From the NCBI GenBank assembly GCA_041645075.1, contig JBAZQS010000001.1, positions 9,147-73,146 of the forward strand: DNA of 64,000 bases, written 5' to 3'. The notes under the pieces were generated by a model. It did not search any database. It was not told the origin of the DNA and saw nothing but the letters and a program-made list of their open reading frames with translations. Of the stretch, positions 18,812 through 60,444 are shown one piece after another. A program made the translations under genes and the position numbers. The stretch is from Patescibacteria group bacterium. GTDB taxonomy: Bacteria; Patescibacteriota; Patescibacteriia; 2-01-FULL-39-33. Each line of letters starts with the position of its first letter. The stretch's first letter is position 1.

Positions 18812-18823
18812 TTATTAATTTTA

Positions 18824-19020: not shown

Positions 19021-19029
19021 GGATTCGAA

Positions 19030-20954: not shown

Positions 20955-21003
20955 AATTTGAACATAAAAATACTCCAGATTAAATCCGGAGTATTTTTAT
21001 TTG

Positions 21004-21075
21004 TAGCAGGGGGCGGAGTTGAACCGCCGACCAATGGCTTATGAGTCCACTGCTCTACCACTGAGCTACCCTGCC
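21004..21075 (-). tRNA. tRNA-Met (anticodon CAT), copy 2
   Basis: Same as copy 1 except T-stem GGCGG/CCGCC. Followed by a block homologous to 18897-19020. Confidence 0.8.
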
Positions 21076-35701: not shown

Positions 35702-38700
35702 ATGTTCAAGTCACGCCCTTCCCTCATGCAAAGGTCGTCCATCACCAAAATATTATTGGTTGTGTTTTTGGTGATTTTTTTGTTTTTAATTTTGCCGACC
35801 ACGACCTGGGCGCAAAACCTTGATCTTGGCTTGGAAAGCGCTCGGGGCATCGGCTTGGCCGAAACCCCGCTCAAGGTGATTATCGCTCGCATCATCCAGA
35901 TTGTTTTGGGTTTTTTGGGCATCTTGACCGTGATTTTGATTATGTACGCCGGCTTTATTTGGATGACGGCGGGCGGTGACGAAAAAAAAATTGAAACGGC
36001 GAAAAAAATACTTCGTGACGCCATCATCGGCCTGATTATAATTTTGGCCGCCTTTATCATCGTCTCCTTTATTTTGCGCGGCTGGGAGACGGGTGGCGGC
36101 GGCCCCGGCGGTCGCGGCCCCGGCGGCGGTCCTGATCTTTGGGGCCTGGGCCAGGATCCGGTGGAAAGCGTTTATCCGGCCAATAGACAAAGGGATGTGC
36201 CCATTAATACGATGATCGCGGTTACTTTTAAGGAGAAAATCAAGCCGAGCACCATCTGCCAAATAGCGGACACGGCGACCCGATGCAATGGCGAAGCCAT
36301 AAAAAGAGATGCAAGAAACAATCTTAATGTGGAGATTTGTAAATTAACCGCCGGTACAACGGCTTGCGAGACGACCGGTGAATTTAGGAAAGAAGATTTT
36401 GCCGCAACCAAGGTCTATAACAACGATGACTATACTTTCGTTTTCATTACTTATCAAAATGACAACAGGAAATATTTGGGCTTGGAAGACAAGCAGAATC
36501 GTGTTTTTCAGGTGACATTAAATCAAGGGATTATGAAAGCTGACGGCAGTGAGACCGTATTTAAAAATTCTACCAATCGGATGTATCGCTGGAGCTTTAC
36601 CACCAACGGCGAGCTGGATTTGGACCCGCCCGAAGTCCAGAGCACGAACGCGGTTTTAAATCCCGAGAGCATTGATAATGTGAGCGGGATTTGGCCCAGC
36701 CCGGATGAAAGGGCCGACACTTATGTATCGGCTGGCGTGGCGACGCGGACTCAATTGATGTTTACCGTCGGGTCGGGTAGCTTTAATCAGGAAATCGTCG
36801 CTTCCGCGACACCGCCCGCGCCCGTAAGCCCAAATACCACAAACGCCACCCTAAGCGGGACATATAGCGGCATAGGTGATGGCACAGTCACCGTGAATAT
36901 TATTGGCAATGCTGTTTCTGTTGCTTGGCCCGGTGTGACTCAACAGTATACCAGCGCTTATGATAGCGGTCTCAATGTAAATATCGGTCCTTATGGTTTA
37001 AATTTCAGATTAAATGAAGTGGTAGCAGGCAGTAATAGCTGGACTTTTAATGTTGTGGCGCCTAAAACCGGCGATCGGGTGCAATTTTTAGATGATAATA
37101 GAGTAATCAGAACATATACCATAGGCAGGGACACAATAGTTTCAGCCGTGGCCGTGAATGGTGATGGCGGAAGATTAAATACCCTAAAAAATATCGTGAC
37201 GAAAATTTTGACGGATTATGGCACGATTTTTCAACGTTGCGCCGTTGATCCAGATCTGTTGTGTCTGGAAACAAAAACCACCGGTTCAGCGACTAATCGC
37301 TATGCCGTAAAATTTTTAATCCAGAATACCACTGCTATTAGTACTGTGTTTAATGCGGCGGTTACGGCCGGTCAAAATATTTTGGAAAGAATAACGGTTA
37401 ATGGCATCAGAGACGCGTATCGCAATACCAAATTTCAGATTAATTTTAATGAGGCGGTGAATCCCTTGGTGATTGATAAAATTTTAGTTAAATATGATAA
37501 AGATTATAATGTCGCGAATGCCACTGAAGCCGCTAATACCGCCGAGACCTCAATCCTAAATACCGCCACCACAACAAAGATAAAATATAAGATTACTAAT
37601 AAATATCGCACCGTTGAATTAACCGGCAATATTGAATGCGGGGTGAATGCTTGCGGCGATAAAATTTATTGCTGGCCGGTAAATAATAAGATAGACACCA
37701 ATGAAGATGGCACTATAGATGTTCTTAATGATTTTGCTCACAAAGCCACTTATTATGAAGTAGAAACACCGGCGGCTAATTTAAAAAAATGCGGTACGGC
37801 TAATGAGGGCTGGTGCAGGACTTGGGGCGGGACTTGCGCCATAGATGGGCCATGCGGTAAAGCCGTGCCCAATGCTGCCAATCAAATAGTTTATTATCCC
37901 AAATCCATACCAACTTGCGTAGGCGATAATGATTCTTGGTGTGAAGGTAGTTGGGGCGGTACCTGTAATGCGGCCTTGGGCAATAAATGCACCAGAGTGG
38001 TCAGTGGAAATTTAGAAATTTATAAGCCCTCGGACAAACCCGAGGATTGGGGTATTTGCCCAACCGTTAATGCCGGTTGGTGTCTGGCTTGGGGCGGTTC
38101 CTGCCTGGCGAACGCGCCTTGTACCAAAATTTTAGCTTCAAACAAATTTTATTATCCTTCATTAGAAACGCCTTTTAGCAACGGCATGACGGACATGGCC
38201 TTAAATTCTTTTAACGGCAGTTTTAATTATTTTCAAGACCCGACTAATCAGAGATATTATGGCTTGGCCAATGGCCAGGAAAAAAACGCCTATATTTTAA
38301 ATTTAGCCAAGCCCTATTATAATCCCTTGGACCCGAGCGGCAGCGGTTTTGGCGATAATTTTCAGTGGAGTTTCTGGCTCTCGGATAAAATTGACTTGCA
38401 GCCGCCCCTTTTGATGAACATTGACCCGATAAAGGATAAGGAGGTAGATAATTTATTATATAAGCCCAAGCTTAATTTCAATAAGGTAATGAGTTACGGC
38501 ACTTTAAGGGCGGGCTGGCTTTATGGCCAAACCATAGAAGAAAGAAATAAGAGATATATTTTACTGACGCCGTTGAGAAACGGTTGGGCGGTCGGCTATA
38601 ACACTAATAGCAGTAATGATGTTGATCGCCGAGATGGCGAGCCCAAATATACCCACACTTTCGTTGAACATGACAGTCCGTTTTCCGTGCCCGCCAGTTA

Positions 38701-39193
38701 CGCGCCCTTGGCCGGCTCGGGCCTAGAATCCATTACCCAGAATTGCTTTTTGCCGGGTAGCGGGCCGAAAAATGCCGGTAGCGGCGCTTGCGTTTATCAA
38801 AATCAAAATAACCCGGAAGCCACGCTCACCACCGGCTGTGTCACCGATGCTGATATTGCTCTCGCGAATCGGGTAAAATTGCCCAATCCCGCTTCTTATG
38901 CCACGCTTTATTGCGATAGAGATGAAATTAACGGCGCTAAAAAATGCGGTCTTAATGATAACGGCACTAATAATCCCAAAGTATATTGTATGGCTTTTCA
39001 CGCGACTTCTACCAAGCCCGAAGTTAATGGCCGGTCGCAAAAAGGCAGCTGGGTTATCAGCCAAGACCATTCGGCTGTTCTATCCGATTTAACCGATGAT
39101 AATGAGAATATAGGTAAAACCGGCTGTTGTTTTGGCAAATGTTTTGATAATAATGGCACGCTTCTTAATTATAATGATGATATAGCCAAATAG
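35702..39193 (+). CDS. Giant surface protein 1 (1163 aa): signal peptide + helical-hairpin membrane anchor module, Gly-rich linker, Cys-rich tandem repeats
   Basis: The N-terminal ~125 aa are paralogous to the N-terminus of ORF 39303..51581 (YAGF(I/L)WMTAGGDEKKIETAKKI). Three tandem ~40-aa repeats C..N.GWC..WGG(T/S)C...C at DNA 37790-38160. A terminator hairpin at 39228-39252 follows. Confidence 0.8.
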   Translation: MFKSRPSLMQRSSITKILLVVFLVIFLFLILPTTTWAQNLDLGLESARGIGLAETPLKVIIARIIQIVLGFLGILTVILIMYAGFIWMTAGGDEKKIETAKKILRDAIIGLIIILAAFIIVSFILRGWETGGGGPGGRGPGGGPDLWGLGQDPVESVYPANRQRDVPINTMIAVTFKEKIKPSTICQIADTATRCNGEAIKRDARNNLNVEICKLTAGTTACETTGEFRKEDFAATKVYNNDDYTFVFITYQNDNRKYLGLEDKQNRVFQVTLNQGIMKADGSETVFKNSTNRMYRWSFTTNGELDLDPPEVQSTNAVLNPESIDNVSGIWPSPDERADTYVSAGVATRTQLMFTVGSGSFNQEIVASATPPAPVSPNTTNATLSGTYSGIGDGTVTVNIIGNAVSVAWPGVTQQYTSAYDSGLNVNIGPYGLNFRLNEVVAGSNSWTFNVVAPKTGDRVQFLDDNRVIRTYTIGRDTIVSAVAVNGDGGRLNTLKNIVTKILTDYGTIFQRCAVDPDLLCLETKTTGSATNRYAVKFLIQNTTAISTVFNAAVTAGQNILERITVNGIRDAYRNTKFQINFNEAVNPLVIDKILVKYDKDYNVANATEAANTAETSILNTATTTKIKYKITNKYRTVELTGNIECGVNACGDKIYCWPVNNKIDTNEDGTIDVLNDFAHKATYYEVETPAANLKKCGTANEGWCRTWGGTCAIDGPCGKAVPNAANQIVYYPKSIPTCVGDNDSWCEGSWGGTCNAALGNKCTRVVSGNLEIYKPSDKPEDWGICPTVNAGWCLAWGGSCLANAPCTKILASNKFYYPSLETPFSNGMTDMALNSFNGSFNYFQDPTNQRYYGLANGQEKNAYILNLAKPYYNPLDPSGSGFGDNFQWSFWLSDKIDLQPPLLMNIDPIKDKEVDNLLYKPKLNFNKVMSYGTLRAGWLYGQTIEERNKRYILLTPLRNGWAVGYNTNSSNDVDRRDGEPKYTHTFVEHDSPFSVPASYAPLAGSGLESITQNCFLPGSGPKNAGSGACVYQNQNNPEATLTTGCVTDADIALANRVKLPNPASYATLYCDRDEINGAKKCGLNDNGTNNPKVYCMAFHATSTKPEVNGRSQKGSWVISQDHSAVLSDLTDDNENIGKTGCCFGKCFDNNGTLLNYNDDIAK

Positions 39194-39227
39194 GCCATTA
39201 ATTAATATTCTAATAGTGTATTTAAAT

Positions 39228-39252
39228 ACCCTCTCCTCTATTGAGGAGAGGG
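39228..39252 (+). terminator. Terminator hairpin between the two giant genes
   Basis: ccctctcctc-tattg-aggagaggg, followed by SD-like gaggagg and the next ATG. Confidence 0.5.
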
Positions 39253-39302
39253 TAGGGTGAGGAGGATTAAATTTCCTATTCCCATAATTTTCTAAATTCA
39301 CG

Positions 39303-42300
39303 ATGACCGCGATTGTCAAAAAGAAAAAATTCATAGCGTTTGTCCTGATTTTGGTTTTGGCCGGAATTTTTATTCTATTCAATCCGATTTTGGCCCAAGA
39401 CCAATTCGGCTTAAACAGCGCCGCGGGCATCGGCTTGGCGCAAAATGACCTTAAAACCACCATTGTCAATATCGTCAGGATATTTTTGGGATTTTTGGGA
39501 TTGGTGGCCGTGATTTTGATTATTTACGCCGGCTTTTTGTGGATGACGGCGGGCGGTGACGAAAAAAAAATTGAAACGGCAAAAAAAATAATTTTAGGCG
39601 CGGTCATTGGCTTAATTATTATTCTGTCGGCGTTTGCCATTGTTTCTTTTGTTTTAACCAGGTTGGCGCCACCGCCGGCCGAGCCATGCGTGTCCGGGAC
39701 AATCGTTAGTTGCGGACCGCAGGGCTGCGGCAGTAAAATTTGCGTCAATGGGAGTTGGGGCGTTTGTAATATCAACACCTCCGCCTGCGACTTTATTCTT
39801 AATAACAAATTAAGCTACATAAAATATTTCCGCTCCGATAAAATACCGGCGGCCGGAAACACTTTTTCAAATTGGACCAGAAACATCAGTTATAATTTTA
39901 GCGGCGTGGTCGGCGTGCCAAAAATAGATGATTTGTCGGTCGGCGCTTACGCGCGAAATAGAGGCGGCTTCATAACCGATACGCGATTATATAAAGTGGA
40001 GGGCTTTGACGGCACAGTTTTTACCGACTACGGCCCATTTAATCCAAATCAAACCCCCAACGAAGAATTTGACACCCAAATTGCTTGGGACACTTCGGCT
40101 TTGAATTTGCAATCAGAATGGAAAATAAAAACTCATGTTGTGCCAAGCGGTATTGCCACGCCATTTGAGTCGCCGGCTATTAAAACAAAAATTAGAGCGC
40201 CCAACTGCTTCAACGGCATCCAGGACTCACAATCGCCTTATGGCGAAACCGGCATTGATTGCGGCGGCAACCCGGCCAGCCAATATTATTGCGGGGCGTG
40301 CGGGGGAGAAAGTTGCAGCAACGGCGGCGACAGCAGCCAATGTCTTGACGAAAATTGCGCCACCAGCGTCTGCCTGCCAATTAATTGCCTGTGCGCCCAA
40401 AATCCGATTATTGATTGGATTGAGCCCGATAATGGCGCGGCCGGGAATTATGTCACCATCGGCGGCCGCTATTTCGGCAATTTAAAGGGCGCGGTTTATT
40501 TTGGCAATACCCGGGCTAATTTGGAATTAAATCCCGAATGCAACAGCACTTGGACCAGCAACCAGATTATCGTGGAGGTGCCGGCCATCGCGCAAAACAC
40601 TTATCAGGTGACGGTCCAGACCCATCAGGATTTTGGCGGTTTAACCAGCAACAGCAAGGACTTCATTCTTAATAATATTGTCCGGCCCGGCCTTTGTAAT
40701 GTTTATAATTTGGATATTTATACGGATAGAAATGTAAAAATAAACGCCGGCTCGGCGAATCAAACAGGCCAGCTTATCGGCGCGAATTTTCCGACCACCG
40801 GCCTCAAAAATGTTGTCTGGAAATTTCTTCCCACCAACACCACCAGCACCGGTTCCAATTGGGCCATAGATAGAGCCCGCGACTTGGTGCCGGAGAACAA
40901 GAGGGGGATGACCAATTTAAATGTTTATAACGGCGCGCAGTATAGTAATCCGTTTAGATTTTTAGTCAGTCCGGGCGGGATCGGCGACCCCTGCGGTTTT
41001 GCCGATGATTCGCCCGGCATTTGTTCGGCGGCAGAGGTTTGCCAGACCGGCCTGGAATGTAATATTTTGGCTACTCCCACTAAGCCGGCTTGTACTTGCC
41101 AATCAGCCGCCAATTTTTGCAATAATAACGGCCAAGTGGAAGGCACGGAAGAGTGCGACGGCACGGCTTTTAAAGACAATAAAAATCAATGTTCAAATTA
41201 TCCCGGCTTTACCGGCGGCGCGCTATCCTGCAACCGACAATGCCGACCAGACACCTCGCAATGTGTCAGTGTTTCCACCACTAACATACCGGCGGGCATG
41301 GGTATATTCACTTGGTCGTTCAATACGATAATCAGCCCGCCCACGCCGTATAGTTGCGGCTATGACCAATATGGCGCCTGCAGTATAAGCGGCTGCGCCA
41401 CGGGCCAGAGATGCGAGGTTCAGGGCAATAGTGACGAATTTATTGAATTTTATAATCCGACTGGCTACACCGTTAATAATTTCGGCGCCTGGTTATTGGT
41501 TATCAATAAAACAAATACTTCTACCATCTCAAATTTTTTGCCGGCGGGCGCCAGCGCTTCAATTCCGGCCAGGGGCTTTTTTGTTTTGCCGCGAAGCGCT
41601 CAATTTGGCTTGCCGCCCGCTTACTCGGGAGCCGTAACCATTAAATTGGTGCGGTCAGCCAACACGGCTTATGATGATAAAATTACCTATGGCGGTCCCG
41701 GCAAATTGCCCTTAGCCATTGCCCCAACTTCTTTGGGCCGGAAAATTGACGGCCTTGAAAGTAGAAGCATATTTTCCGATCCCCTTGTTTTTACTGATTT
41801 TTCTGTTTTTGCCCGTTCCACTAAAGGCGTCTCTAACAGCGCGGAACCAGCCAAAACAGGCGCTCGTCTACTTATTAATGAAATTTCCGTGGGCATTGAC
41901 CCTTGCACTTGCCGGCCAGCCGCGCTCGCTACCTGCGCCAACGGCCTATTGGATGTGGGCGAGATTTGCGATCGGGTGGGCAATGAGGACGTATTCCAGC
42001 GCGGCACTGGCCTTTGCTCGGATTATAATATCGGCTCAACCGGCCGGTTATCCTGCCGGAATTGCCAGATTGATAAGAGCAGTTGCCAAGGTCCTTTAGT
42101 CGATATCACCCAAGCGGCCATTGGTATGTACACCTGGTCGTTTAATACGATTAGCCAATCGCCATTTCAACGGCCTTATGTGGTGGAGGACTGCAGTCGG
42201 ACAAGAAGTTGTGATGTCGGCGCTAAAATGGCCAGCCCCACCCCCTGGAGCGAAGAATGGAATCAAGTCAAGCACCCCAATTTATATATTCCTCAACCAT

Positions 42301-45300: not shown

Positions 45301-48300
45301 ATGGCATTAAAGAGTCGTCGCTTGAAGAGTGCGATGATCGCAACACCATAAACGGCGACGGCTGCAGTAGTAATTGCCTTTTAGAGGGTTCGGATCAAAA
45401 ATATGGCTCTCTTTGCGGCAACCAAAGAATACAAACAGGCGAGAGTTGCGATGACGGCAACACCGCAAACGGCGACGGCTGTTCTGATAAATGCTTGCCA
45501 GAATCCGGCCGGCCAAACGGTTCACGGCCAAACGCGCCCATTTGTGGCAATGGCAAGATAGAAATCGGCGAGGATTGCGATGATGGCAATAAAGTTAATG
45601 ACGATGGTTGCAATTTCCGCTGTTTAAATGAGGGTTCAAGCGGTGGCGCCAGGTGCGGCAATAATGTGGTGGAAAAGGGCCAGCCCACTAGTTTCTCTTG
45701 GACTTTTGCAGTAGACCAAAGCGCTGAAACTTGCGTGCCAGTAGTATTTAATATTAGTAATTGTCCTAATGGCATTTGGGAGGCGGTGGTGGGCGTTAAC
45801 ACTACCATGAATTTAAATAATTTTGCGATTTGCGAGCATGATAATACAGTTTTTAATAATGTCGCTTTTGGCAATAGTTTATGGGGTAAGATTTTAGGCA
45901 AGATAAAATTAGTCGTAAATAAATTTACCAATAGAAAATCCGTCTTTGCCGGAGTTGGCGATCTTTGTGGTAATGGCTGGACGATTCGACCCAATGGTGA
46001 ATTTGATATTTTGGAATATAGCAGTACGGATAATCAGAAAATTTTTGATTTTATTAAAAAAGCGGATTGGGCTGGTGGTCATGAGTATAAAATTGTGGGA
46101 GATATAAACCGCAACGGCGGGTTTGATGAAGGAATTGACACCCAGGCCTCGGTAATAATGAGAACGCATGGCCGTTGTTGGATTGAAGGCGCAAAGATAA
46201 ACGTCTGGCCCATGGGCGAGGAAAAATATAATGATACTTTTTTCTGCTACGGCGAAAATTGCGGTAAGCGAACCGTAAGCTTATATGATGATGATATTTC
46301 CGCCGATTGGAACACTCTTTTTCCTTATTTGAAATATAATGATATTGCCGTTAGCGACCCCCTCAAACCGGGTAACCAGCATTTGTATCAGGCCTGGGCT
46401 TTAAGCACCAGTAGTGATTTATTGAAATCAAATATCGCATGGAGTATGAGCAATCCGAGTTATGTCAGTCAGCAGGATTTTAATTATTCTACCGGAGTTG
46501 GCGATGGCAATAGAAACAAATGGTTCACGGGCGGTAATGTGGGTGGCGACGGCTACATAACCGCCAAAGTCACCTCTGATTCTAATATAGACATCGGTAA
46601 AGCCACAGCCACGACCACAGTCAAAGTGTTTTTATGCGAAAATCCCTGGCCGTCGCCCGAGAATTTTCCTTATTATGATTCTGCTAATAATTGCAAGACC
46701 AATAGCGGTGGCTGTGTTAATACCAATTTTGAACTTTATTATTGCCGTGATAGCGGGGCGGCCGGACCAGATGGCGATTTGCCGGCGGTTTATGACCCGG
46801 TGGTTATCGGTTATAGCGCTCTTACCCCGGCCAGAAATGTCAACGATTTAATAAAAGAATTTATATTTACCAGGCAGTTTTCCCTAGCCGAAGCGACAAG
46901 AAATATCAAGCAGACGATTACGGGCGATAAGACCATTACCGATGTCGGAGATGGTAGAAACGGGTGTTATATTCAACCTGGCTACGCCGTGACATTTATC
47001 GAAAGTGATAGGTGTGATTTTGTTTATGAAATTAATTTTCCCAAATCAGGGGATTATTATTTGCTTTTAAAGACCGCCAACGACAATAACTCGCTTGAAA
47101 AAGCGGGTTTGGATATCAATCATGAAATGGACATCAGGGTAGATGGCGTGATTAAGGGGACAATTATCGCCAAAGCCAGCCTGCCAAATAATCCCCAGAC
47201 CAATATAGTCAAATTATCCAATATTTCGGCTGGGAAGCATGCCATAAAAATTGACTGGACAAATGATTTTTATTGTTCCGGTCCCGGTGGCGCTTCGTGC
47301 CCGTCCTGGACTCCTATAGATACGGTCACCGGTGAATATAAATATTTTGATTCTAATTTAAGAATTTACAGCCTGGCTTTGGCCGAGGGTTCAAATGACG
47401 ACGCCATTGGCGTCAGAGTCGTGGCTAACAGTAATCATTTTTCACCGCTATTTTGGTATCGGAAATATTTTGACCCAAATAATCAGGGCAGTCCCAGCGG
47501 CCTGCTCGCCAATGATTATCAGGGCGTCAGAGAGGGCCGGACGGTTTATGTCAATGCCGCCGATTTAAATGATAATAAGAAAGAGATTTATAGCAATGTG
47601 TACTTGCTTTCTTATAGCGCCGCTGCCGATGCCATTACCAAAGATATTTATAATGGCCTGCTGGCTAATTTTCATTTTAATGTACAAAATCCGTTTGGCG
47701 TCTGCAGCGCTGACGCCACCTATAAATGCTTGACCGACACCAACTGCCAGCAAGCCAATAAGGGCTATTGCTTATTAAATTACAGCCAAGGCGGTTTGCC
47801 CGACTTCGGCGTCTGCAGTGATGATGCCACCTATGAATGTTTGACTGACACCAATTGCCAAAAAGCCAACAAGGGCTATTGCTTGTCGGATAAAGCCAAG
47901 TTAACCCGAGACACCAAACGGCTGGCCGACTTGCAATTCATTAATTCACTTTTGGCTACTTATAATAATACCAAGAGATGCAATAACGACCATTCGCGCT
48001 TATGTGCCGGCGACTCCGGTTGCTATGGCGGCGGTTCTTGCGGCAACTATTATCCGAATTTATTAGCCGGTTCTTATATTGTCGGCCGAACCTTTAGCGC
48101 TTGGCCGTCTTGGCAGGCGACTTTGGGCAACACCATTGGCTCGGCTTTGCCCATTGACCCCCTAAACGGTTTTAAGGGCTGTGGCGACCAATATGACAAA
48201 ATCACCTGCTGGGATAATTTAAATAAATTAATGCGGTGTCCGGACGAGACGACGTATGTTTATACTTATTCCTCAACGGCGATAAACGGCAAAAGCGAAA

Positions 48301-51300
48301 CCAAGAACATATTTGCCCATCGGGAATATGCTCCGACGCCAGCCGCTTCCTGGCAGCCGGTTTGGAGCCAGGTTGAGTACATGAAGGATAATCCCGATCC
48401 ATTCAAAGATCCGTTTACGAATTTCAGCGTTGCCCAGATGTGCCAACCCACGCCGACTTGCGGCAATAACACAATTGAGGCGGGAGAAAATTGTTACAAT
48501 TGCTGGGCCGATGCCGGCTGTGGCAATAGCGCGCTAAATGCGGGCGAAAGCTGTCAACGAAGCGTTGTTGCCGGTGTAGAAAATTGGTCGTGCCGTTGTC
48601 CGGATAGCGACCGTATTCCCTATGCAAATGATAAAACCAAATTAATATCTGATGGATTTCCGGACGTGGCTTGCGGCGGTAAAGCGAGAGATAATTGTCC
48701 TTATGTTTTTAATCTTGATCAAACGGATAGCGATAGCGATGGCATTGGTAATGCTTGTGATAGCTGTCCGACAAGTGCCAATGTCGATCAAAAAGACAGC
48801 GATCGCGACGGCGTGGGCGATGCCTGTGATAATTGTGTCAGTAAATATAATTTGCGAGTAAATGGAAATCAGCCGAATTCTGATGGCGATAATTTTGGCG
48901 ATGCCTGTGATAATTGTTCGACCGTGGCCAATAATGATCAGACGGATGCCGACAGCGATGGCGTGGGTAATGTGTGCGACAACTGTCCGACCATTAAAAA
49001 TCAAAATCAAAATGATATTAATCGCAATGGCCGGGGCGACGCTTGCGAGGTTTATGTTGCGAGTTATTGCGGCAATAGCGTTGTGGAAAATATAAATACG
49101 GGCGGTTATGGCAGTGAGGTTTGCGATGAAGGAGCCGATAATGGCAAGCCCAATCGTTGCAACAGCACTTGCACCGGAATTTTTTCCACTTTCTGCGGCG
49201 ATGGCCAAATGGTAACTGGTGATAATGAACAGTGCGACTGCGGCATTGACCCGGCGCGTTTGCCCGTGGGACCGGCCTGTACGACTTCATGGCCGGCAGG
49301 AGCGGGCTCGCGTCCGACCTGGGATACAGTCAGTTTTACTACGATTAATGGCGTGCCGCCGGATTTGTATTCCACCGATCAAAAAACATTATGGTATTGC
49401 AGCGCCGGTTGCCAACAAACCCGCCAAGACAGCCGTTATTGCGGCGATAGCCGGGTTGATAGCTTAAACGGCGAGCAATGCGATTTAGGAGTACAAACCG
49501 GTCTGACAGACACCACCTATAATTATGACTATGGTACCTGCAATACTCAATGCCAGAGGACTTATTGCGGCGATGGCAAAAAACAGGACCCTAATGGCAT
49601 GGGCCGGGGCGGTCCAAATAATGACGGCAAAGAAGCGTGCGACGGCAGTGATTATGGTTCCGGTGGCCAGCCAATTGGTAAGACGTGCAATAATAATTGT
49701 CAAATTGTGGCAAACACCGTAAATGTAAATTTAGGCGTTTGTGGCGATGGCGTCAAACAAACACCGAATACCAGCGGACTCAATGAAACTTGCGATGAGG
49801 GGGCTTTAAACGGCCAACCTGGCCACTGCAATTCAACTTGTACCGGAGTTTTATTAGATCAATTTTTATATTATGGCCGTATTCATTTTGGAGAAATGTG
49901 TGATGGCACGGTTCATGCTTATTTAGCTACTTATAGCCCATTAATATTAGATAGCGGTTGGTTAAGTATGGCTTCAAAACTTGATAACGCCATGTTTTTG
50001 GTTAATCAAAAAAGCGATGATCCTTGCTCTAAGGGTTCGGATACCCCGGTGCCGGCAGGATATAATGTCGTGGGTGGCATTCATTTGGGCGACAAGGAAA
50101 GAGACGTGGCTTCGGACAATTCTTACTGCTCTTTTATTGCGGCTGTTGGTTATAACGGCACGGCTTGGAATACGGCCATGGGAACGGCCGGGACGAATTT
50201 AGAAGGACCTGGTTGGGTGAAAATCGCGGCTAAAGACGATTCTATTAAATTAGCTATGGTTTATGGGGTAAATCCCGAAAGTCCGCGCGCATCATGTCCG
50301 TCGGGCTATACCGAACAAGGGGCCATATTTGTTGGCTTAACGACTGTGACTGATAATCTGCCTCGGGCGTACATTGGTGGGACTTCCATAAGCAAGGGCT
50401 GGGTTTCTTTCTGTGTGAAAAATAATATTCCGGCGCAGACGAAATTCGAAGTGGGTCAAAGAGATGATTGCAGCATTGTCCAGGCAAATCGTTATTCTTG
50501 CCCGGCCGATTATAAAATGATTTTCGTGTCCACTTCGGGCAGTAGTAGTAATGATGGTTTAAGTGAAGCCGACCCCAGAGCCACCTTAGACCAAGCGCAA
50601 GCCGTGGTCGCGGCCAATCCTTCAGAGCCGGGTTATTGTATTTTATTAAAAGGCGGAGATACATTTACTACTTTTACCTCTCATGGTACAGCAGTTGAAA
50701 CGGGCGAAACTGATGTTAATTCGCATTATGCATTTTTGTGGAATATTAATAAGCCGTTGGTTATGAAGTCTTATGGCGCGCCAAACGCGATTTTACAGCA
50801 ACCATCTGCCCAGTCGGCAACTATGCCGCCCGCGGCCATTGCTATCGCGCGACCAGAATCAAGCCCGTTGACTAGCAAGGTTATTATTTCTAACCTAACT
50901 TTTAAAAATTGGCAGGCCCGGGTTATTTATATGTCTAGTGTGAGGAACGTGGAGATAAATAATAATATTATTGAAGGTGCGGGCACAAAACAATTAGGTG
51001 ATAATGGCGGAGTTTATGGAGATGGAGTTATCTACCCCGAAGATTCTAGTGGCATAGTTGTTGATGGCAATCAAATAACCGATTCACTTAATAGGACTGG
51101 TGATAAGTATGATGATATCCATGCGGTGTATATAAACAGATCTTCCAATATTGAAATAAAAAACAATACGATTACCAATATTTCTGGGCCGGCTCTCAAG
51201 ATGGTTAGAAACCAGACATCCGATATATCAATCCATGATAATACTCTGAATTATATTGGTCCTTATATCGGACAATCGGAAGTCCAATTTGGATTTGTGA

Positions 51301-51581
51301 GGTTGGCCGATAAGGGGGGCGGTTGTCCTACCGGCATAAGAATTTATAGTAATACATTTTGGTATCCGTATTGTACTGGCAGTTCTTGTTCTAATAAGCA
51401 GGTTAATCGCTGTTCGTCCGAGGGCTGTAGCAGTTTTTGCGGATCTAATGATACGCCGAATTCAAGCGGAACGTATGATAATGTAAATGGTAATTTTGGC
51501 GACAATCAGCCGACAGTATTATGGAAAAATGGCGTTTCTGGGGCGTGGGGTACAAATAATTTCAGAGGCGGATGGCAGTAA
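39303..51581 (+). CDS. Giant surface adhesin-like protein 2 (4092 aa): anchor module, Cys-rich regions, LamG/concanavalin-like lectin domain, Myxococcus-type Cys-rich repeats, thrombospondin type-3 Ca-binding repeats, C-terminal parallel beta-helix
   Basis: - Uninterrupted 12.3-kb ORF.
- LamG-like: GLIGYWNFDDGDAKDSSGAGNDG...FDGVDDYIEIP...VSAWIY...LDDVRIYNRVLSDTEIKEL.
- Myxo Cys repeat x3: CGDGIKESSLEECDDRNTINGDGCSSNCLLE.
- TSP3 repeats: DQTDSDSDGIGNACDSC, DQKDSDRDGVGDACDNC, DQTDADSDGVGNVCDNC.
- Beta-helix tail homologous to 19386..20954. Confidence 0.85.
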   Translation: MTAIVKKKKFIAFVLILVLAGIFILFNPILAQDQFGLNSAAGIGLAQNDLKTTIVNIVRIFLGFLGLVAVILIIYAGFLWMTAGGDEKKIETAKKIILGAVIGLIIILSAFAIVSFVLTRLAPPPAEPCVSGTIVSCGPQGCGSKICVNGSWGVCNINTSACDFILNNKLSYIKYFRSDKIPAAGNTFSNWTRNISYNFSGVVGVPKIDDLSVGAYARNRGGFITDTRLYKVEGFDGTVFTDYGPFNPNQTPNEEFDTQIAWDTSALNLQSEWKIKTHVVPSGIATPFESPAIKTKIRAPNCFNGIQDSQSPYGETGIDCGGNPASQYYCGACGGESCSNGGDSSQCLDENCATSVCLPINCLCAQNPIIDWIEPDNGAAGNYVTIGGRYFGNLKGAVYFGNTRANLELNPECNSTWTSNQIIVEVPAIAQNTYQVTVQTHQDFGGLTSNSKDFILNNIVRPGLCNVYNLDIYTDRNVKINAGSANQTGQLIGANFPTTGLKNVVWKFLPTNTTSTGSNWAIDRARDLVPENKRGMTNLNVYNGAQYSNPFRFLVSPGGIGDPCGFADDSPGICSAAEVCQTGLECNILATPTKPACTCQSAANFCNNNGQVEGTEECDGTAFKDNKNQCSNYPGFTGGALSCNRQCRPDTSQCVSVSTTNIPAGMGIFTWSFNTIISPPTPYSCGYDQYGACSISGCATGQRCEVQGNSDEFIEFYNPTGYTVNNFGAWLLVINKTNTSTISNFLPAGASASIPARGFFVLPRSAQFGLPPAYSGAVTIKLVRSANTAYDDKITYGGPGKLPLAIAPTSLGRKIDGLESRSIFSDPLVFTDFSVFARSTKGVSNSAEPAKTGARLLINEISVGIDPCTCRPAALATCANGLLDVGEICDRVGNEDVFQRGTGLCSDYNIGSTGRLSCRNCQIDKSSCQGPLVDITQAAIGMYTWSFNTISQSPFQRPYVVEDCSRTRSCDVGAKMASPTPWSEEWNQVKHPNLYIPQPLACVDAVISARFSNRMNPATINNNTVIVLKCDNTNGKDCRKVSGAVEVYKDNNNLDYDIFKFTPTADLTPNAWYKVVLKSEEIKDYVGLKLDNKTTLLSLSERYCAEITYNGGITTDKDYCWNFQTRPSNVKCNPGCVECSPDPERFRYRFEAKPFKANLDSEDNVCLMLNSWNYLWNWSTDKSDKIFVYNLANQPVATGIALKETIYDAPDKFAKVITQLEVNPNKTDYCRAYIDLTNLVVIEDQSCDKGTTQSPSPWIMSEDACLNGLISARFNLPVADETVKSSGNLIVEKCGGVKDEALAGVGCERQSVNSAQIHIFPYSHLPLSENLRNLIFEQGLSPAFPEGFLINQSENFNPNTWYRVILLGGDNGVRASKIITLADGTESDTNEPQGKLLTPNPNTRTDYNQDGEDDYIWLFKTGSQICEVDSVEVAPADKFMKYTYETQVYNAFAQAANCNVLNSCKYNWQWRSVIEPTDNSNSGDSIATIKNEKDQPSICVGKGGEKIGPTLVDPVQLASAVAEGETNIKAIEPGKDLVHPNQPAYGAKWDYGHLQIGFPKLRITDYKPKGKILCTNENIKITFNEDVKSSSIRVTNPALSADNIKVYKCVGDGVCVKKGLIGYWNFDDGDAKDSSGAGNDGIKKNGVVISPYAEKGMVAIFDGVDDYIEIPNTNTSPLTDKITVSAWIYFNDSSFTTQQWVVNQGRDYYGSGWGILLYNGALRFSVNTNNADDGREITIASPVSSRRWYYVTAVYDSINGAKLYIDGVEKANASAKGKIVYKYNEKITFGVMAFYSPTYFKFSGMLDDVRIYNRVLSDTEIKELAGSTQQNATCYTNDDCPTSLDDMPLNLKVNYPAYVYGYSSGVWTPVWTPELSKELDLSIVNALEPKAKYRVVVNGGPAGPIAWNTNQLGDLNYNVGNGRGEECEPGLYPWKVLSGSCENAFYALQKCVLPYYYNSCPDPANPNDLKNLIKECNRGEAYCDQNCHNTGNTNIASCGDGIKESSLEECDDRNTINGDGCSSNCLLEGSDQKYGSLCGNQRIQTGESCDDGNTANGDGCSDKCLPESGRPNGSRPNAPICGNGKIEIGEDCDDGNKVNDDGCNFRCLNEGSSGGARCGNNVVEKGQPTSFSWTFAVDQSAETCVPVVFNISNCPNGIWEAVVGVNTTMNLNNFAICEHDNTVFNNVAFGNSLWGKILGKIKLVVNKFTNRKSVFAGVGDLCGNGWTIRPNGEFDILEYSSTDNQKIFDFIKKADWAGGHEYKIVGDINRNGGFDEGIDTQASVIMRTHGRCWIEGAKINVWPMGEEKYNDTFFCYGENCGKRTVSLYDDDISADWNTLFPYLKYNDIAVSDPLKPGNQHLYQAWALSTSSDLLKSNIAWSMSNPSYVSQQDFNYSTGVGDGNRNKWFTGGNVGGDGYITAKVTSDSNIDIGKATATTTVKVFLCENPWPSPENFPYYDSANNCKTNSGGCVNTNFELYYCRDSGAAGPDGDLPAVYDPVVIGYSALTPARNVNDLIKEFIFTRQFSLAEATRNIKQTITGDKTITDVGDGRNGCYIQPGYAVTFIESDRCDFVYEINFPKSGDYYLLLKTANDNNSLEKAGLDINHEMDIRVDGVIKGTIIAKASLPNNPQTNIVKLSNISAGKHAIKIDWTNDFYCSGPGGASCPSWTPIDTVTGEYKYFDSNLRIYSLALAEGSNDDAIGVRVVANSNHFSPLFWYRKYFDPNNQGSPSGLLANDYQGVREGRTVYVNAADLNDNKKEIYSNVYLLSYSAAADAITKDIYNGLLANFHFNVQNPFGVCSADATYKCLTDTNCQQANKGYCLLNYSQGGLPDFGVCSDDATYECLTDTNCQKANKGYCLSDKAKLTRDTKRLADLQFINSLLATYNNTKRCNNDHSRLCAGDSGCYGGGSCGNYYPNLLAGSYIVGRTFSAWPSWQATLGNTIGSALPIDPLNGFKGCGDQYDKITCWDNLNKLMRCPDETTYVYTYSSTAINGKSETKNIFAHREYAPTPAASWQPVWSQVEYMKDNPDPFKDPFTNFSVAQMCQPTPTCGNNTIEAGENCYNCWADAGCGNSALNAGESCQRSVVAGVENWSCRCPDSDRIPYANDKTKLISDGFPDVACGGKARDNCPYVFNLDQTDSDSDGIGNACDSCPTSANVDQKDSDRDGVGDACDNCVSKYNLRVNGNQPNSDGDNFGDACDNCSTVANNDQTDADSDGVGNVCDNCPTIKNQNQNDINRNGRGDACEVYVASYCGNSVVENINTGGYGSEVCDEGADNGKPNRCNSTCTGIFSTFCGDGQMVTGDNEQCDCGIDPARLPVGPACTTSWPAGAGSRPTWDTVSFTTINGVPPDLYSTDQKTLWYCSAGCQQTRQDSRYCGDSRVDSLNGEQCDLGVQTGLTDTTYNYDYGTCNTQCQRTYCGDGKKQDPNGMGRGGPNNDGKEACDGSDYGSGGQPIGKTCNNNCQIVANTVNVNLGVCGDGVKQTPNTSGLNETCDEGALNGQPGHCNSTCTGVLLDQFLYYGRIHFGEMCDGTVHAYLATYSPLILDSGWLSMASKLDNAMFLVNQKSDDPCSKGSDTPVPAGYNVVGGIHLGDKERDVASDNSYCSFIAAVGYNGTAWNTAMGTAGTNLEGPGWVKIAAKDDSIKLAMVYGVNPESPRASCPSGYTEQGAIFVGLTTVTDNLPRAYIGGTSISKGWVSFCVKNNIPAQTKFEVGQRDDCSIVQANRYSCPADYKMIFVSTSGSSSNDGLSEADPRATLDQAQAVVAANPSEPGYCILLKGGDTFTTFTSHGTAVETGETDVNSHYAFLWNINKPLVMKSYGAPNAILQQPSAQSATMPPAAIAIARPESSPLTSKVIISNLTFKNWQARVIYMSSVRNVEINNNIIEGAGTKQLGDNGGVYGDGVIYPEDSSGIVVDGNQITDSLNRTGDKYDDIHAVYINRSSNIEIKNNTITNISGPALKMVRNQTSDISIHDNTLNYIGPYIGQSEVQFGFVRLADKGGGCPTGIRIYSNTFWYPYCTGSSCSNKQVNRCSSEGCSSFCGSNDTPNSSGTYDNVNGNFGDNQPTVLWKNGVSGAWGTNNFRGGWQ

Positions 51582-51622
51582 AAATTTTATTTTTGACAAA
51601 TTAAATAAAATAAATCAATAAT

Positions 51623-52333
51623 ATGTTTAATCAACAACAAGCTCAACAAAATTCAAATCCAGATTTAAGTTCATCCGGTAATGCCTTGCCCATTGAGCCG
51701 GCTTTGCCGCCCCAGCCGCCTACGCCGCCGCCTCAAGTAGAGGATATGTTTGCCGAAACCGATAAAGGTAATCCGCAAGTAATCAGGCCGCTCCAGCCAG
51801 GACAAGTCCAAAATATATTGCCCGATACTCAAGGCGAGGATATTTTTGGCGGCCGTTCAATTTGGCAAAATAAATTGTTAGTCGTTGTTTTAATGGCGGC
51901 GGGCGTATTGATTTTGGGTGGCGCGGGCTGGCTGACTTTTAGTTTTTTTGCCAAATCAGGAAAGCCCAATCAAAATATTAACAATAACAGCGCGGCGGCC
52001 AATATCAACAACGTCAATACGGCGAATGTAAATAATGTGAATAATAATGCCGACGCGACCAACAATGCCAATACCAATCAAGCGGCGATTCCCATTGACA
52101 GCGATAATGACGGTTTGACTGATGAAGAAGAAAGAAATCTGGGTACTGATCCGAATAATTTTGACAGCGATAATGACGGCTTGACCGATAGCGCCGAGGT
52201 AAAAATTTATAAGACCGACCCACTTAACCCGGATACGGACGGCGACGGCTATAAAGACGGCCCGGAAGTCAGCAGCGGTTATGATCCGACTAAATCGGGC
52301 GGGGCCAGATTATTTAATGTCCCAACGCAATAA
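51623..52333 (+). CDS. Membrane-anchored protein with EF-hand/TSP3-like Ca-binding DxDxDG loops
   Basis: 236 aa. Q/P-rich N-terminus, one TM, N-rich spacer, then IDSDNDGLTDEEE, DSDNDGLTDSAE, DTDGDGYKDGPE loops. Confidence 0.7.
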   Translation: MFNQQQAQQNSNPDLSSSGNALPIEPALPPQPPTPPPQVEDMFAETDKGNPQVIRPLQPGQVQNILPDTQGEDIFGGRSIWQNKLLVVVLMAAGVLILGGAGWLTFSFFAKSGKPNQNINNNSAAANINNVNTANVNNVNNNADATNNANTNQAAIPIDSDNDGLTDEEERNLGTDPNNFDSDNDGLTDSAEVKIYKTDPLNPDTDGDGYKDGPEVSSGYDPTKSGGARLFNVPTQ

Positions 52334-52366
52334 TTAAAAATCAAAATTAATTATTTAAATTATTAT

Positions 52367-53830
52367 ATGTTTAACTCAAACAATTCGCCCTCACCCATCA
52401 GTCAGCCGCCGGAAAATAAACCGCCGAGCCCAAACTTTTCCTTGAATAATAATCCGCCGGAACCGCTAAAGGACGAAGTTTATGTGATGCCGGAAAAATT
52501 CCATCCCCAGCCAGCCAAATCATCGGCCGGTAAGCCCTTGATTATCGCTTTGATTATTTTAATTTTAGTCGTGGCGGCCACGGCCACTTATTTTTTGTAT
52601 GATATGTGGCAAAAGAGCCAGAATGGTCTGGCGTTAGCCAATCAAAATCTTAATGTGAATAATAGTCAAAATCAGAATCAGAATGAAAACCAGAATGAAA
52701 ATGTAAACAGCGATATAAATAATAGTTTAAATAGTAATGCCGAAATAAATTTAAATGCCGAAACCAATACCGATATCAGCACCAGCACGCCGCCGGAAAA
52801 TATCGGCGTCTATACGGCCCAAATACCGCCTCAAATAAGCAGTGACAGCGACAATGACGGTTTGACTGACGCGGAGGAAGCCGTGGTCGGCAGTTCGCCG
52901 ATTGAACAGGACAGCGATAAAGACGGTTTTATTGACGGCCAGGAATTAGCCAAGGGCTATAGCCCGACCGCGCCAGCCGGCGACAACGGCAGATTGCCGG
53001 CGGCCAGTTTTATCGCCTCGCTTTCCACGAATTTTATCAAGGATAATTTTAAAATACTTTATCCCAAAAACTGGCAAGCAACGACAATCCCGGCCACCAA
53101 TCAGGTGGTGATTACCACCAATACAGGTGAGATTATAAAAATATCCGCGCGCGATAATAATGACCGTGTTTCCGCCGCTAATTGGTATTTGAATAATAAT
53201 CCGCAGGCCTCTTTAAGCCAATTAAAAAGCCTCACGGCCGGCGACTTAAGCGGCGTGTTTTCTCCCAATGGTTTAGCCGCCTATCTGGCCGATGCCGATA
53301 AAAATCGGTTTTATTCTTTTGAGTATATGATGGATGCCAACGCTCAATTCCGCTATCCCGCTTTATTTTTAATGGTTATTAAAAATTTTGCGCCGATTAT
53401 TGGCAGTGAGACAACCGCCAATTGGCAGGCCTTTAGCAATGAAGTCAATAATTACACCGTAAAATATCCTAAGGACTGGAAAACCGTGACGGACAATAGC
53501 AATGTCGTCGGCTTTGCGCCAATTACTATGGCTCTAGATTATCAATGGGCGATATTGGTGTTTGACGCGAGCCAGAAAACCAAGGAAGATATTATCAGGG
53601 AAATGGGCAGCCAGTTCGGCCAGTCCAGAACGGAAAATCGGGCGAATATAACCATGGGCAATATACCGGCCACCAAAGTAGCGGTCACCACGGCAACCAT
53701 TCCATCTTGGTATTTTGAATCCATTTTTATTGAAAAAAATAGTAAGATATATCAGATATCAAATGGCGCCATAAACAGCGATTTATTTGAGCCATTTTAC
53801 AGGAGTTTTCAATTCATAGCCAATAATTAG
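52367..53830 (+). CDS. Membrane-anchored protein with N-rich low-complexity spacer, two DxDxDG Ca-binding loops and a C-terminal globular domain
   Basis: 487 aa. P-rich N-terminus, TM (LIIALIILILVVAATATYFLY), NQN repeats, SDSDNDGLTDAEE, DSDKDGFIDGQE. Confidence 0.7.
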   Translation: MFNSNNSPSPISQPPENKPPSPNFSLNNNPPEPLKDEVYVMPEKFHPQPAKSSAGKPLIIALIILILVVAATATYFLYDMWQKSQNGLALANQNLNVNNSQNQNQNENQNENVNSDINNSLNSNAEINLNAETNTDISTSTPPENIGVYTAQIPPQISSDSDNDGLTDAEEAVVGSSPIEQDSDKDGFIDGQELAKGYSPTAPAGDNGRLPAASFIASLSTNFIKDNFKILYPKNWQATTIPATNQVVITTNTGEIIKISARDNNDRVSAANWYLNNNPQASLSQLKSLTAGDLSGVFSPNGLAAYLADADKNRFYSFEYMMDANAQFRYPALFLMVIKNFAPIIGSETTANWQAFSNEVNNYTVKYPKDWKTVTDNSNVVGFAPITMALDYQWAILVFDASQKTKEDIIREMGSQFGQSRTENRANITMGNIPATKVAVTTATIPSWYFESIFIEKNSKIYQISNGAINSDLFEPFYRSFQFIANN

Positions 53831-60100: not shown

Positions 60101-60444
60101 AAGAAAGCGGCGCCGCGCCTTATTATACGAATTCCACGCATCTGCCCGTTAATTTTTCCACGGATATTTTTGAGGTTTTGGAAAAGCAGGATGTTTTACA
60201 GACAAAATATACGGGCGGCACGGTTGTCCACGGTTTCTTGGGCGAGCGGATGCCGGACGCCGAGAGCACGAAAAATTTAGTCAGAAAAATCGCGGAAAAT
60301 TTCCATTTGCCTTATTATACTTTGACGCCGACTTTTTCCATTTGTCCCAAGCACGGTTATCTGGCCGGCGAGCATAGATTCTGCCCGATTTGCGATGAAG
60401 AGATTGGTTATATCAGGGAGCAGGAAGAAAAATTGCCTCTTTAA
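57181..60444 (+). CDS. nrdD: Anaerobic ribonucleoside-triphosphate reductase NrdD (class III) containing an intein and lacking the glycyl-radical C-terminal peptide, which is on a separate ORF
   Basis: N-terminal ATP-cone. Class III RNR body. C-terminal Zn-ribbon-like CPKHGYLAGEHRFCPIC, then stop. Exteins flank the intein as ...EDARSM | CCRLRLDNREL. Confidence 0.85.
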   Translation: MEPNVIKQVRKREGDIVDFSQDKITQAVYKALKAVGRDDEALSLELSDKVVRILNNKFHYRSIPAIEEIQDMVEEVLIKEDLVKAAKAYIIYREQHSRLRDLKKLIDSDDVINGYLKQLDWRVKENANMAYSLQGLNNHVASAVSSHYWLNRVYPPEIREAHVSGAIHLHDLQILAVYCCGWDLQALLRLGFGGVEGKIHSKPAKHLRVALSQMVNFFYTLQGEAAGAEAFANFDTLLAPFVRYDGLGEKEVRQAMQEFIFGMNVPTRVGFQTPFTNLTFDLICPSIMANEVVIIGGLPQKETYKEFQPEMDMINRAFAEVMMAGDANGRVFTFPIPTYNISVDFNWDNKVLDPIWEMTAKYGIPYFANFVNSDMKPEDARSMCISPKEEVLVRNRANIKRLSFGQMVDKYRKTEFDQDGWADCDLNKNLELLSLNPETGKMEWARAKRFLKVEDNRQIRIIAEDGKSFEVSSKHIVPVLTENGIINKFAKDIKNGDYLLNLKKADEILNTAYQHIDDFVLNEDLAKILGFFTADGNYLFENRKNMKALGQPRGMQFTFNAQTKKDLAEVKELIEKVFKTAVKEKKDPRYNSYYLYIYNTGLARKLFDAGFKKYGHLPDIIFNSPIAVIESFLDYHFRGDGHEKRKEIHINDKELARDLVILYSLIGRPVTYRERKKSQVVYIQHQKSKINKKGILSNPVIAERVPGFLAKSTYLVPGLNKSRMVGFDALDKYQAQTKFSLSIKNSDYYIVRVKKVVQKIFTKARAFFDVELETNHLFVHSLGVITHNCCRLRLDNRELRKRGGGLFAANPLTGSIGVVTINMSRIGYLSKTRDEYFNRLGQTMDLAKQSLQLKREILESFTEQGLYPYSKYYLKDIKERFGEYWRNHFNTIGLNGMNESLLNFMKRPLSTKEGQEFALEVMDFMLQRLGKYQEGDNQLYNLEATPAEGATYRFAKKDKELYPDIIVANEEAYQESGAAPYYTNSTHLPVNFSTDIFEVLEKQDVLQTKYTGGTVVHGFLGERMPDAESTKNLVRKIAENFHLPYYTLTPTFSICPKHGYLAGEHRFCPICDEEIGYIREQEEKLPL
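58330..59544 (+). mobile_element. Intein (405 aa) with LAGLIDADG homing-endonuclease domain inside nrdD
   Basis: Starts at Cys (CISPKEEVL...) and ends ...SLGVITHN, followed by +1 Cys (CCRL). Internal LAKILGFFTADGNY and ESFLDYHFRGDGH LAGLIDADG-like blocks. Length is a multiple of three (1215 nt). Confidence 0.8.

Follow-up and report, generated by a model that had tools for sequence, protein, structure and literature searches.

A stretch of 64,000 nucleotides (nt) from a Patescibacteria group bacterium (the window) raises the question of what two oversized surface proteins and two small membrane proteins, encoded side by side, do together. The four open reading frames (ORFs) are ORF1 (35702-39193; 1163 amino acids (aa), the smaller pilin-anchored surface protein, with 30 Cys), ORF2 (39303-51581; 4092 aa, the giant, likewise a pilin-anchored protein of the surface, with 172 Cys, 4.2%), ORF3 (51623-52333; 236 aa) and ORF4 (52367-53830; 487 aa), the last two being bitopic membrane proteins. 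All of them lie on the plus strand, exactly where an earlier note made from the sequence alone had placed ORFs of these four lengths, and the spacers in nt are YqeY-41-ORF1-109-ORF2-41-ORF3-33-ORF4-14-YbeY. The sequence data moderately favour a reading in which the four products belong to a single cell-surface complex for contact, anchored in the membrane and stabilised by disulfides and Ca2+.

The giant ORF could in principle be an artefact, either an assembly chimera or a repeat run read through by chance. Mis-joined repeats are possible in metagenome-assembled genomes (MAGs), and in one close relative (L009) a stop occurs after 1,526 aa, with homology to the giant still present beyond it. 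However, public NCBI and JGI records hold identical copies of all three proteins searched (P0001, P0080 and P0200) under the MAG label 'Patescibacteria group bacterium', with the locus tag WC610_00260 for ORF1, and the 4092-aa ORF2 product (P0080) was called independently in both sets of records. ORF2 has 375 homologues at E<=1e-10; colinear homologues of 2,500-4,200 aa, numbering in the hundreds, come from unrelated samples, and colinear block-wise alignments extend over 3,400 aa. The single notable internal repeat is one 111-nt duplication. The chimera that the earlier note had named as a danger is therefore not seen, because identical public proteins and hundreds of colinear homologues from unrelated samples are on record, and an artefact of either kind is considered extremely improbable. 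The relative with the early stop is the closest GTDB relative of the giant (L009 2881-7461 onward, 79-94% aa identity), and its stop reflects either an error of assembly or a frameshift or pseudogene. The closest relative of the window itself is a Candidatus Falkowbacteria MAG, whose flanking housekeeping proteins are 88-95% identical; the small-genome bacterium supposed earlier is a member of the Patescibacteria, or candidate phyla radiation (CPR), with a nearest relative labelled Ca. Falkowbacteria.

The N-terminal regions of the two giants share one anchor. Both consist of a basic n-region and hydrophobic signal sequence followed by two long hydrophobic helices, with a short charged loop, GGDEKKIETAKK, between them. 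The ORF1 anchor (35702-36094, plus strand) comprises a signal peptide ending in TWA, with QN following, and then a two-helix VirB2-like hairpin, and the ORF2 anchor (39303-39674, plus strand) comprises a signal peptide ending in ILA, with QD following, and then a VirB2-like hairpin. The hydrophobic segments span aa 7-40, 55-92 and 100-131 in ORF1 and aa 1-34, 50-86 and 90-124 in ORF2, and the first ~120 residues are 61% identical (67/109). The shared module reported earlier is thus borne out, although its identity as a VirB2/TrbC-type pilin domain of the type IV secretion system (T4SS) had been missed. The T4SS_pilin family (PF18895) matches ORF1 with 33.8 bits (aa 55-124) and ORF2 with 36.4 bits (aa 48-117) against a gathering cut-off of 26.6, and both anchors match TrbC/VirB2 and the NCBIfam 'pilin-like conjugal transfer protein' model more weakly. 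In the VirB2 topology, everything C-terminal of the second helix is outside the membrane, which places the C-terminal 1,000-4,000 residues of both giants outside the cell. This extracellular location is supported by the 172 cysteines of ORF2, the 30 of ORF1 and the near-invariant cysteines of the ORF2 core domain described below. Beyond the N-terminal ~130 aa, no transmembrane (TM) segment was found in either giant. Neither carries an LPXTG sortase signal, the closest being internal LPGSG and LPESG, and the C-termini are hydrophilic.

The anchor also opens a different explanation, in which both giants are components of a T4SS pilus. Their VirB2-like domains would be T4SS substrates that co-polymerise with small pilins, the giants serving as tip or decoration adhesins, or nucleating or capping the pilus. 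Over the N-terminal ~120 aa, the giants resemble the VirB2/TrbC pilins (PF18895/PF04956) in the signal peptide, the two hydrophobic helices and the short charged loop, and PF18895 is above its gathering score in both, accompanied by the NCBIfam pilin-like conjugal-transfer model. In F-type pilins the C-termini are reported to be exposed on the outside of the pilus, and fusions at that end may therefore be displayable, which counts for a pilus. VirB2-like pilins and T4SSs of the MPF-FATA type are widespread in Patescibacteria (PMC12102498); pilin genes there often lie apart from virB4, and a Saccharibacterium cannot do without its T4SS genes (PMC12102498). Against this, known VirB2 pilins are small subunits that polymerise, and their genes usually accompany virB4, whereas the giants here have ectodomains of 1,000-4,000 aa and no T4SS gene nearby: neither VirB4, VirB6, VirD4 nor any other T4SS gene was found in the 64-kb window, nor was any within 8-10 kb of the four genes in 12 related loci, according to Pfam-annotated gene tables. 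The conserved partners are instead membrane proteins with thrombospondin type-3 (TSP3) repeats and housekeeping genes. Extensions of 1,000-6,800 aa would fit tight helical packing poorly, unless at very low stoichiometry, and TrbC (PF04956) reaches only 22.8 bits on ORF2, under its cut-off of 27.9. A role as pilus components is accordingly thought unlikely. T4SS pilins have about 70-130 aa and the pilin fold alone, whereas the proteins here have 1163 and 4092 aa and the family as a whole ranges from 530 to 6860 aa. 'Pilin-anchored' is therefore a safer name than 'pilin', because size and gene linkage both depart from those of pilins despite a bona fide PF18895 domain. The survey of T4SSs in Patescibacteria catalogued VirB2-like pilins and did not mention giant fusions (PMC12102498), and surveys that count PF18895 matches as 'T4SS pilins' may include such proteins. 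Proteins with T4SS-pilin domains rank among those secreted proteins that Paceibacteria express most highly (PMC10936435).

Outside the anchor, ORF2 is a mosaic of conserved blocks and poorly shared stretches, as seen when the BLAST high-scoring segment pairs of 198 homologues were laid onto it. The conserved blocks are aa 1-120 (the anchor), 300-600 (TIG), 900-1600 (Big_5), 1980-2130 (Cys repeats) and 2700-3000. The poorly shared stretches are aa 600-900, 1600-1900 (LamG), 3100-3500 (TSP3 and CGDG units) and 3560-4092, the last being covered by none of the 198. Within the conserved part, an IPT/TIG immunoglobulin (Ig)-like domain (PF01833, 36.9 bits vs 20.9) lies at 40404-40664 on the plus strand (aa 368-454, in the aa 300-600 block) and a Big_5 Ig-like domain (PF13205, 49 bits vs 23.6) at 42309-42587 on the plus strand (aa 1003-1095). 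The aa 900-1600 block that contains Big_5 is covered by about 90-98 of the 198 homologues. Three Myxococcus-type Cys-rich acidic repeats (TIGR02232/DUF4215) occupy 45291-45623 on the plus strand, starting at aa 1998, 2038 and 2081, and this region is conserved in about 100 homologues. An LTD-like stretch gave a sub-threshold match.

The adhesin-type modules proposed earlier for ORF2 (LamG, TIGR02232, TSP_3 and beta-helix) all exceed curated cut-offs. The LamG/concanavalin-like jelly-roll (PF13385) at 44286-44768 (plus strand, aa 1662-1822) matches Laminin_G_3 over the full model (1-151/151) with 87.6 bits against a cut-off of 27.6, and the three Cys repeats match TIGR02232 in 3 stretches with 77.2 bits against 20.8. 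The TSP3 Ca-binding repeats (PF02412) at 48684-49052 (plus strand, aa 3128-3250) reach 36.8 bits against 25; the four repeats announced have motifs at aa 3142, 3165, ~3190 and 3215, and a degenerate fifth is present at 3238. The further CGDG Cys-rich units were found by regular expression as five CG[DN]x units at 49068-49862 (plus strand, aa 3256-3520), beginning at aa 3256, 3298, 3380, 3422 and 3480. The C-terminal right-handed beta-helix module at 50499-51452 (plus strand, aa 3733-4050) gave 36.8 bits against 25.9 for PF13229 (aa 3858-3986) when the last 533 aa were scanned alone; PF13229 was not reported in a scan of the whole of ORF2.

The LamG, TSP3 and beta-helix modules are, as judged from the alignments, lineage-specific decorations on a conserved scaffold, because they are poorly shared in the map of 198 homologues. 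The LamG region (aa 1600-1900) is aligned by just 11-15 of these, and the beta-helix module is carried by none of them and by no related locus. Among the 120 best ORF2 matches, PF13385 is present in about 20, PF02412 in 5 and both in 2, and PF13229 is present in 0 of the 119 others. The combination of eukaryote-like LamG and TSP3 modules had been called uncommon; the modules are indeed present, but the Pfam and NCBIfam models also cover bacterial proteins, and here the modules are non-conserved add-ons. A PDB sequence search with the beta-helix module returned no match. A stand-alone protein of 522 aa (19386-20954, plus strand), encoded ~20 kb upstream and outside the interval of the four genes, is secreted or anchored; it begins with a hydrophobic segment, matches Beta_helix and aligns with ORF2 aa 3733-4049 at 46% identity over 334 aa (E 3e-91). 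This paralogue points to a module having been exchanged between the tip of the giant and a small secreted protein.

The family is defined by a conserved core domain at 47370-48332 (plus strand, aa 2690-3010), with the motif S-x-W-P-S-W-Q...L-P-x-D-P-x-N and near-invariant cysteines. In an alignment of 38 diverse members (A1), residues N20, W29, Y60, R184, P229, G234, W245, S247, W248 and D263 of the core are invariant and seven cysteines are near-invariant. A search of 1.84 billion representative proteins with the core profile gave 1,530 matches at E<=1e-3, of which 1,277 reached E<=1e-30, so that the core marks at least 1,277 protein clusters at 50% identity. Nearly all full-length matches have 2,500-4,200 aa and a single core at about residue 1,900-2,300, about two-thirds along the protein. 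The AlphaFold2 model built from the A1 alignment is two-lobed and confident, with a predicted local distance difference test score (pLDDT) of 86.4 and a predicted TM-score (pTM) of 0.83. The predicted fold gives no functional lead beyond an 'envelope-associated alpha/beta domain'. Foldseek comparison of the core with viral structures gave nothing at E<0.01, and PDB sequence searches with the core profile and with ORF1 gave nothing useful. A type IV pilin-like head in the C-lobe (aa 2860-2990), prompted by the helix motif K-L-x-R-D-x-K-R-L-x-D...Y-P, was considered and was not supported. Homology between the N-lobe and the globular domain of ORF4, both of which look PsbP-like, received an hhalign probability of 1.7% and is not claimed.

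The core contains the internal tandem duplication of ORF2, in which a 4-Cys knot module of 37 aa is repeated (47694-47884, plus strand). Its existence agrees with the earlier description of a ~105-bp duplication at 47695-47895, whereas the period does not: two 80-nt copies (47694-47773 and 47805-47884), 86% identical, are placed 111 nt apart. The duplication was not reported by Tandem Repeats Finder (TRF) and was found by a separate repeat search. Most homologues have a single copy of the knot, and the first copy in ORF2 corresponds to a low-pLDDT loop at core residues 110-138.

In ORF1, Big_5 is a weak match; the architecture of the protein is shared by 79 homologues of ~900-1150 aa. Three Cys/Trp-rich repeats of ~40 aa with the pattern C-x4-GWC-x-WGG-x-C...YYP-S occupy 37760-38130 on the plus strand, and this stretch (aa ~690-810) is the least conserved part among the homologues. 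In related loci, the ORF1 homologue is located directly upstream of the giant; the separate gene is missing solely in L011.

The two small genes were expected to encode membrane-anchored proteins with Ca-binding loops, and each product has one TM helix, with three TSP3_bac loops in ORF3 and two in ORF4. The Ca-loop motif D-x-D-x-D-G-x-x-D is present in these loops, as it is in the ORF2 repeats. ORF3 consists of a Pro/Gln-rich cytoplasmic tail, a TM helix (aa 79-110), an Asn-rich spacer and the three loops (aa 159-217), which match TSP3_bac (PF18884) with 79.1 bits against a cut-off of 25. ORF4 consists of a cytoplasmic tail, a TM helix (aa 50-81), an Asn-rich spacer, the two loops (aa 160-195; 26.3 bits against 25) and a conserved globular domain. 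An extra C-terminal region of ~140 aa in ORF4 is PsbP-like, with PsbP and PsbP_2 just below threshold, and the proteins of other loci are without this extension; the 36 homologues of ORF4 typically have ~350 aa. The sole PDB matches of ORF4 are of the EF-hand/lanmodulin type and fall on the Ca loops (E 0.01). Neither ORF3 nor ORF4 contains a single cysteine. In 9 loci an ORF3 orthologue is encoded at the corresponding place. Orthologues of both proteins share one layout of a disordered cytoplasmic tail, a TM helix, an Asn-rich low-complexity spacer and TSP3_bac loops, to which ORF4 adds the globular domain. The cytoplasmic tails are unalignable among loci L004-L014 except for one short motif in each, kept across all loci: [VPI]-[ED]-D-[IM]-[FL]-x-[ED] in ORF3 (QVEDMFAETD in the window; tail 51623-51860) and [IV]-[YHF]-x-M-P-x-x-[FY] in ORF4 (VYVMPEKF in the window; tail 52367-52515). 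The conservation of these motifs implies a conserved cytoplasmic partner.

The arrangement of the four genes was compared in 12 distinct related loci (cited by L numbers), found by looking up the exact sequences of homologues and by one scan of GTDB. The scan, made with a single protein against GTDB genomes, gave 5 loci, and phyletic breadth is taken from the protein searches and the 12 loci. Upstream, the order in L001, L003-L006 and L010-L014 is (LytR, in reverse orientation) - signal peptidase I (SPase I) - histidyl-tRNA synthetase (HisRS) - (S21) - YqeY, followed by a pilin-anchored protein of 531-1156 aa and the pilin-anchored giant. Downstream, in L004-L007 and L010-L014, the giant is followed by a TSP3_bac protein of ~190-300 aa, an ORF4 homologue of ~320-440 aa and then YbeY - (DagK) - FtsA - FtsZ; the cassette genes of these loci keep their order and are separated by short spacers. 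The variants are L011, with no YbeY match and no separate ORF1, and L013, with two TSP3 genes. The giants of these loci have 2,520-6,860 aa. Compared with the window, identity goes down to 24-33%, whereas FtsZ remains at 59-73%. With Falkowbacteria HZA71, identity is 74% for ORF1 and 72% for the N-terminal 600 aa of ORF2, compared with 88-95% for LytR, SPase, HisRS and YqeY. With 72-75% identity to the closest relative, the cassette proteins diverge faster than the flanking genes. The relatives are labelled Falkow-, Buchanan-, Uhr-, Komeili- or Nomurabacteria, or plain Patescibacteria, and presumably belong mostly to the GTDB class ABY1. An accessory or variable adhesin system does not agree with this comparison, which shows a single-copy four-gene cassette at the fixed site rpsU-yqeY / ybeY-ftsA-ftsZ. 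The cassette looks like a core apparatus of the cell surface, not a strain-specific island, as it recurs at the same spot in every related locus examined. As a separate observation, the GTDB records of L008, L009 and L010 are titled 'uncultured Gammaproteobacteria bacterium'; they carry the Patescibacteria-type cassette and flanks, and the titles look mislabelled.

The fixed position bears on another explanation, that the cassette encodes a core element of the envelope or of morphogenesis. The giants would then be a wall-spanning scaffold or a surface layer (S-layer), and the bitopic partners would link it to the divisome or the cytoskeleton, through which a surface structure might, for instance, be positioned or partitioned at division. 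The cassette is present in single copy directly upstream of ybeY-(dgkA)-ftsA-ftsZ in the 9 loci with a visible downstream flank (L011 being without a YbeY match), with 14 nt to ybeY in the window, and the core and scaffold are kept throughout the large family sized above. The conserved motifs in the ORF3 and ORF4 tails and the cytoplasmic partner that they imply point the same way, and Big_5 is by name the Ig domain of SbsA S-layer type. However, a fixed gene order in reduced genomes is possible without a functional link, and neither ORF3 nor ORF4 showed a Pfam divisome domain (FtsQ/POTRA, FtsN and others). Faster evolution than in the flanks and modules that vary (lectin, TSP3 and beta-helix) suit an interaction surface better than a uniform layer, and a 4,000-aa protein with a single anchor is unlike known S-layer subunits. 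Such an element is held to be rather unlikely.

In the favoured reading of a surface complex for contact, the four products would build a fibre or spike that projects through the wall and is stabilised by Ca2+ and disulfides. The conserved scaffold would be its structural part, and the variable modules would bind glycans on the surface of a partner cell or substrate, which the beta-helix might also cleave. The base next to the membrane, and with it the link to the cytoplasmic partner, would be provided by ORF3 and ORF4. From the domain content, a role in adhesion or host attachment is plausible. Several points weigh against such a complex. A physical association of the four products is suggested by conserved adjacency only. 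Host-range adhesins tend to be mobile and present in several copies, and a strict single copy at a housekeeping site is atypical of them. An anchor of a pilin family might also signal polymerisation, not simple anchoring.

A bolder and quite unlikely proposal joins these elements into a new lineage-defining surface organelle, with giant fibres anchored by VirB2 hairpins on a base of the two bitopic TSP3 proteins, which would be coupled by way of their conserved cytoplasmic motifs to the cytoskeleton or divisome encoded by neighbouring genes or to a distant T4SS. If true, the organelle would be a new envelope-spanning attachment or feeding structure made from a repurposed conjugative-pilin fold. 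Pili-like cell-cell connections on CPR cells have been reported from cryo-electron microscopy and are a possible counterpart.

The contact complex can be compared with several known systems. It would work like a giant non-fimbrial adhesin, and such adhesins of Gram-negative bacteria, of the RTX type exported by type I secretion systems (T1SS) and represented by SiiE, LapA and MpIBP, are alike in size, in Ig-like extenders, in Ca2+-binding modules and in lectin-type modules on a stalk. However, the proteins here have no GGxGxD repeats (the RTX motif was absent from all four), no C-terminal T1SS signal and no ABC, membrane fusion protein (MFP) or TolC genes nearby, the neighbours being housekeeping genes. 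The giants carry an N-terminal membrane hairpin in place of an outer-membrane retention module, and ORF2 is very rich in Cys with heterogeneous domains, whereas the RTX adhesins are long arrays of one repeat. The giants thus do not belong to the RTX/T1SS or LPXTG class, because the features defining these classes were looked for and are absent. A more partial likeness is seen with the Myxococcus proteins MtsC and MtsD (cell-cell cohesion) and CglD (a gliding lipoprotein), which have TSP3 loops and disulfide repeats of the CxxCGDG... type in common with ORF2. The match is limited to these repeats; no MYXO-CTERM or lipoprotein signal is present here, and the scores lie far below the NCBIfam equivalog cut-offs (MtsC 63.5 vs 350, MtsD 29.9 vs 800, CglD 32.9 vs 400).

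Within the phylum, P. danicum encodes FhaB-domain proteins of >5000 aa (PMC11809585), and Absconditicoccaceae encode proteins of >1500 aa with fn3, ConA and integrin domains (PMC13059738). Surface proteins of such size in Patescibacteria are usually taken to be adhesins (PMC11809585, PMC13059738). These giants and those of the window are alike as oversized exported proteins of adhesion type, including concanavalin-like domains, from the same phylum and with the same inferred role in partner contact. The published proteins are described as rapidly reshuffled and without full-length homologues, whereas the family here has a conserved scaffold, a core, a VirB2-like anchor, three companions and a fixed position. 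Oversized surface proteins of Patescibacteria have so far been treated as idiosyncratic and fast-shuffling, and this giant is one of a large family that has clear diagnostic features. A full-text literature search, of incomplete coverage, found no description of the cassette or of VirB2-anchored giant proteins. The locus is an ordinary member of a large, already-sequenced family with swappable tips, which itself appears to be uncharacterised. To our knowledge, the molecules of cell contact in Patescibacteria are largely unknown outside a few cultivated lineages. The family offers a concrete and widely conserved target for proteomics, cryo-electron tomography, binder design and CRISPR interference, and the conserved machinery can now be separated from the likely specificity modules, namely LamG, TSP3 and the beta-helix.

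The spacers of the cassette contain signals other than those supposed before. Each of the two large genes had been credited with its own terminator; the terminator scan was empty in both spacers, and the region as a whole has 22 terminator-like sites against 25.6 expected, without enrichment. The argument from separate terminators for independent transcription units therefore fails. The 109-nt spacer between ORF1 and ORF2 contains a perfect 12-bp stem-loop (39227-39254, plus strand) with no U-run. The spacer folds with -35.3 kcal/mol (z = -4.36), and the hairpin was not called by the terminator scan. In the 41-nt AT-rich spacer between ORF2 and ORF3, a promoter-like TTGACA-18-AATAAT (51593-51622, plus strand) agrees with 11 of 12 consensus positions, a call made by consensus match only.

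Some further features of the window and of a related locus were noted. Upstream of the cassette in L006 (3992-5325 of SCUL01000002), a bAvd-like gene and a reverse-transcriptase gene (RVT_1) lie between LytR and the signal peptidase, ~3 kb from the cassette. Such a pair is a hallmark of a diversity-generating retroelement (DGR), and nothing comparable was seen in the window, in which no DGR reverse transcriptase, T1SS, T4SS or sortase gene was found; the Pfam-annotated gene tables of the related loci are likewise free of T1SS, T4SS and sortase genes. Elsewhere in the window, Pfam matches at E<=1e-3 are absent from five ORFs of 183-424 aa (1968-2789, 2997-3815, 4989-6263 on the minus strand, and 10074-10625 and 10938-11996 on the plus strand). 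A gene for a Fic-domain protein (297-1490, plus strand), a tmRNA gene (8002-8381, minus strand) and a tRNA cluster of Leu-CAA and three tRNA-Met (18728-19082 and 21003-21075) show nothing unusual. The anaerobic ribonucleotide reductase NrdD (57181-60444, plus strand, 1087 aa) has an Intein_splicing match at aa 428-788; the orthologue in L004 consists of 681 + 59 aa without the insert, and the NrdD of the window is probably intein-containing.

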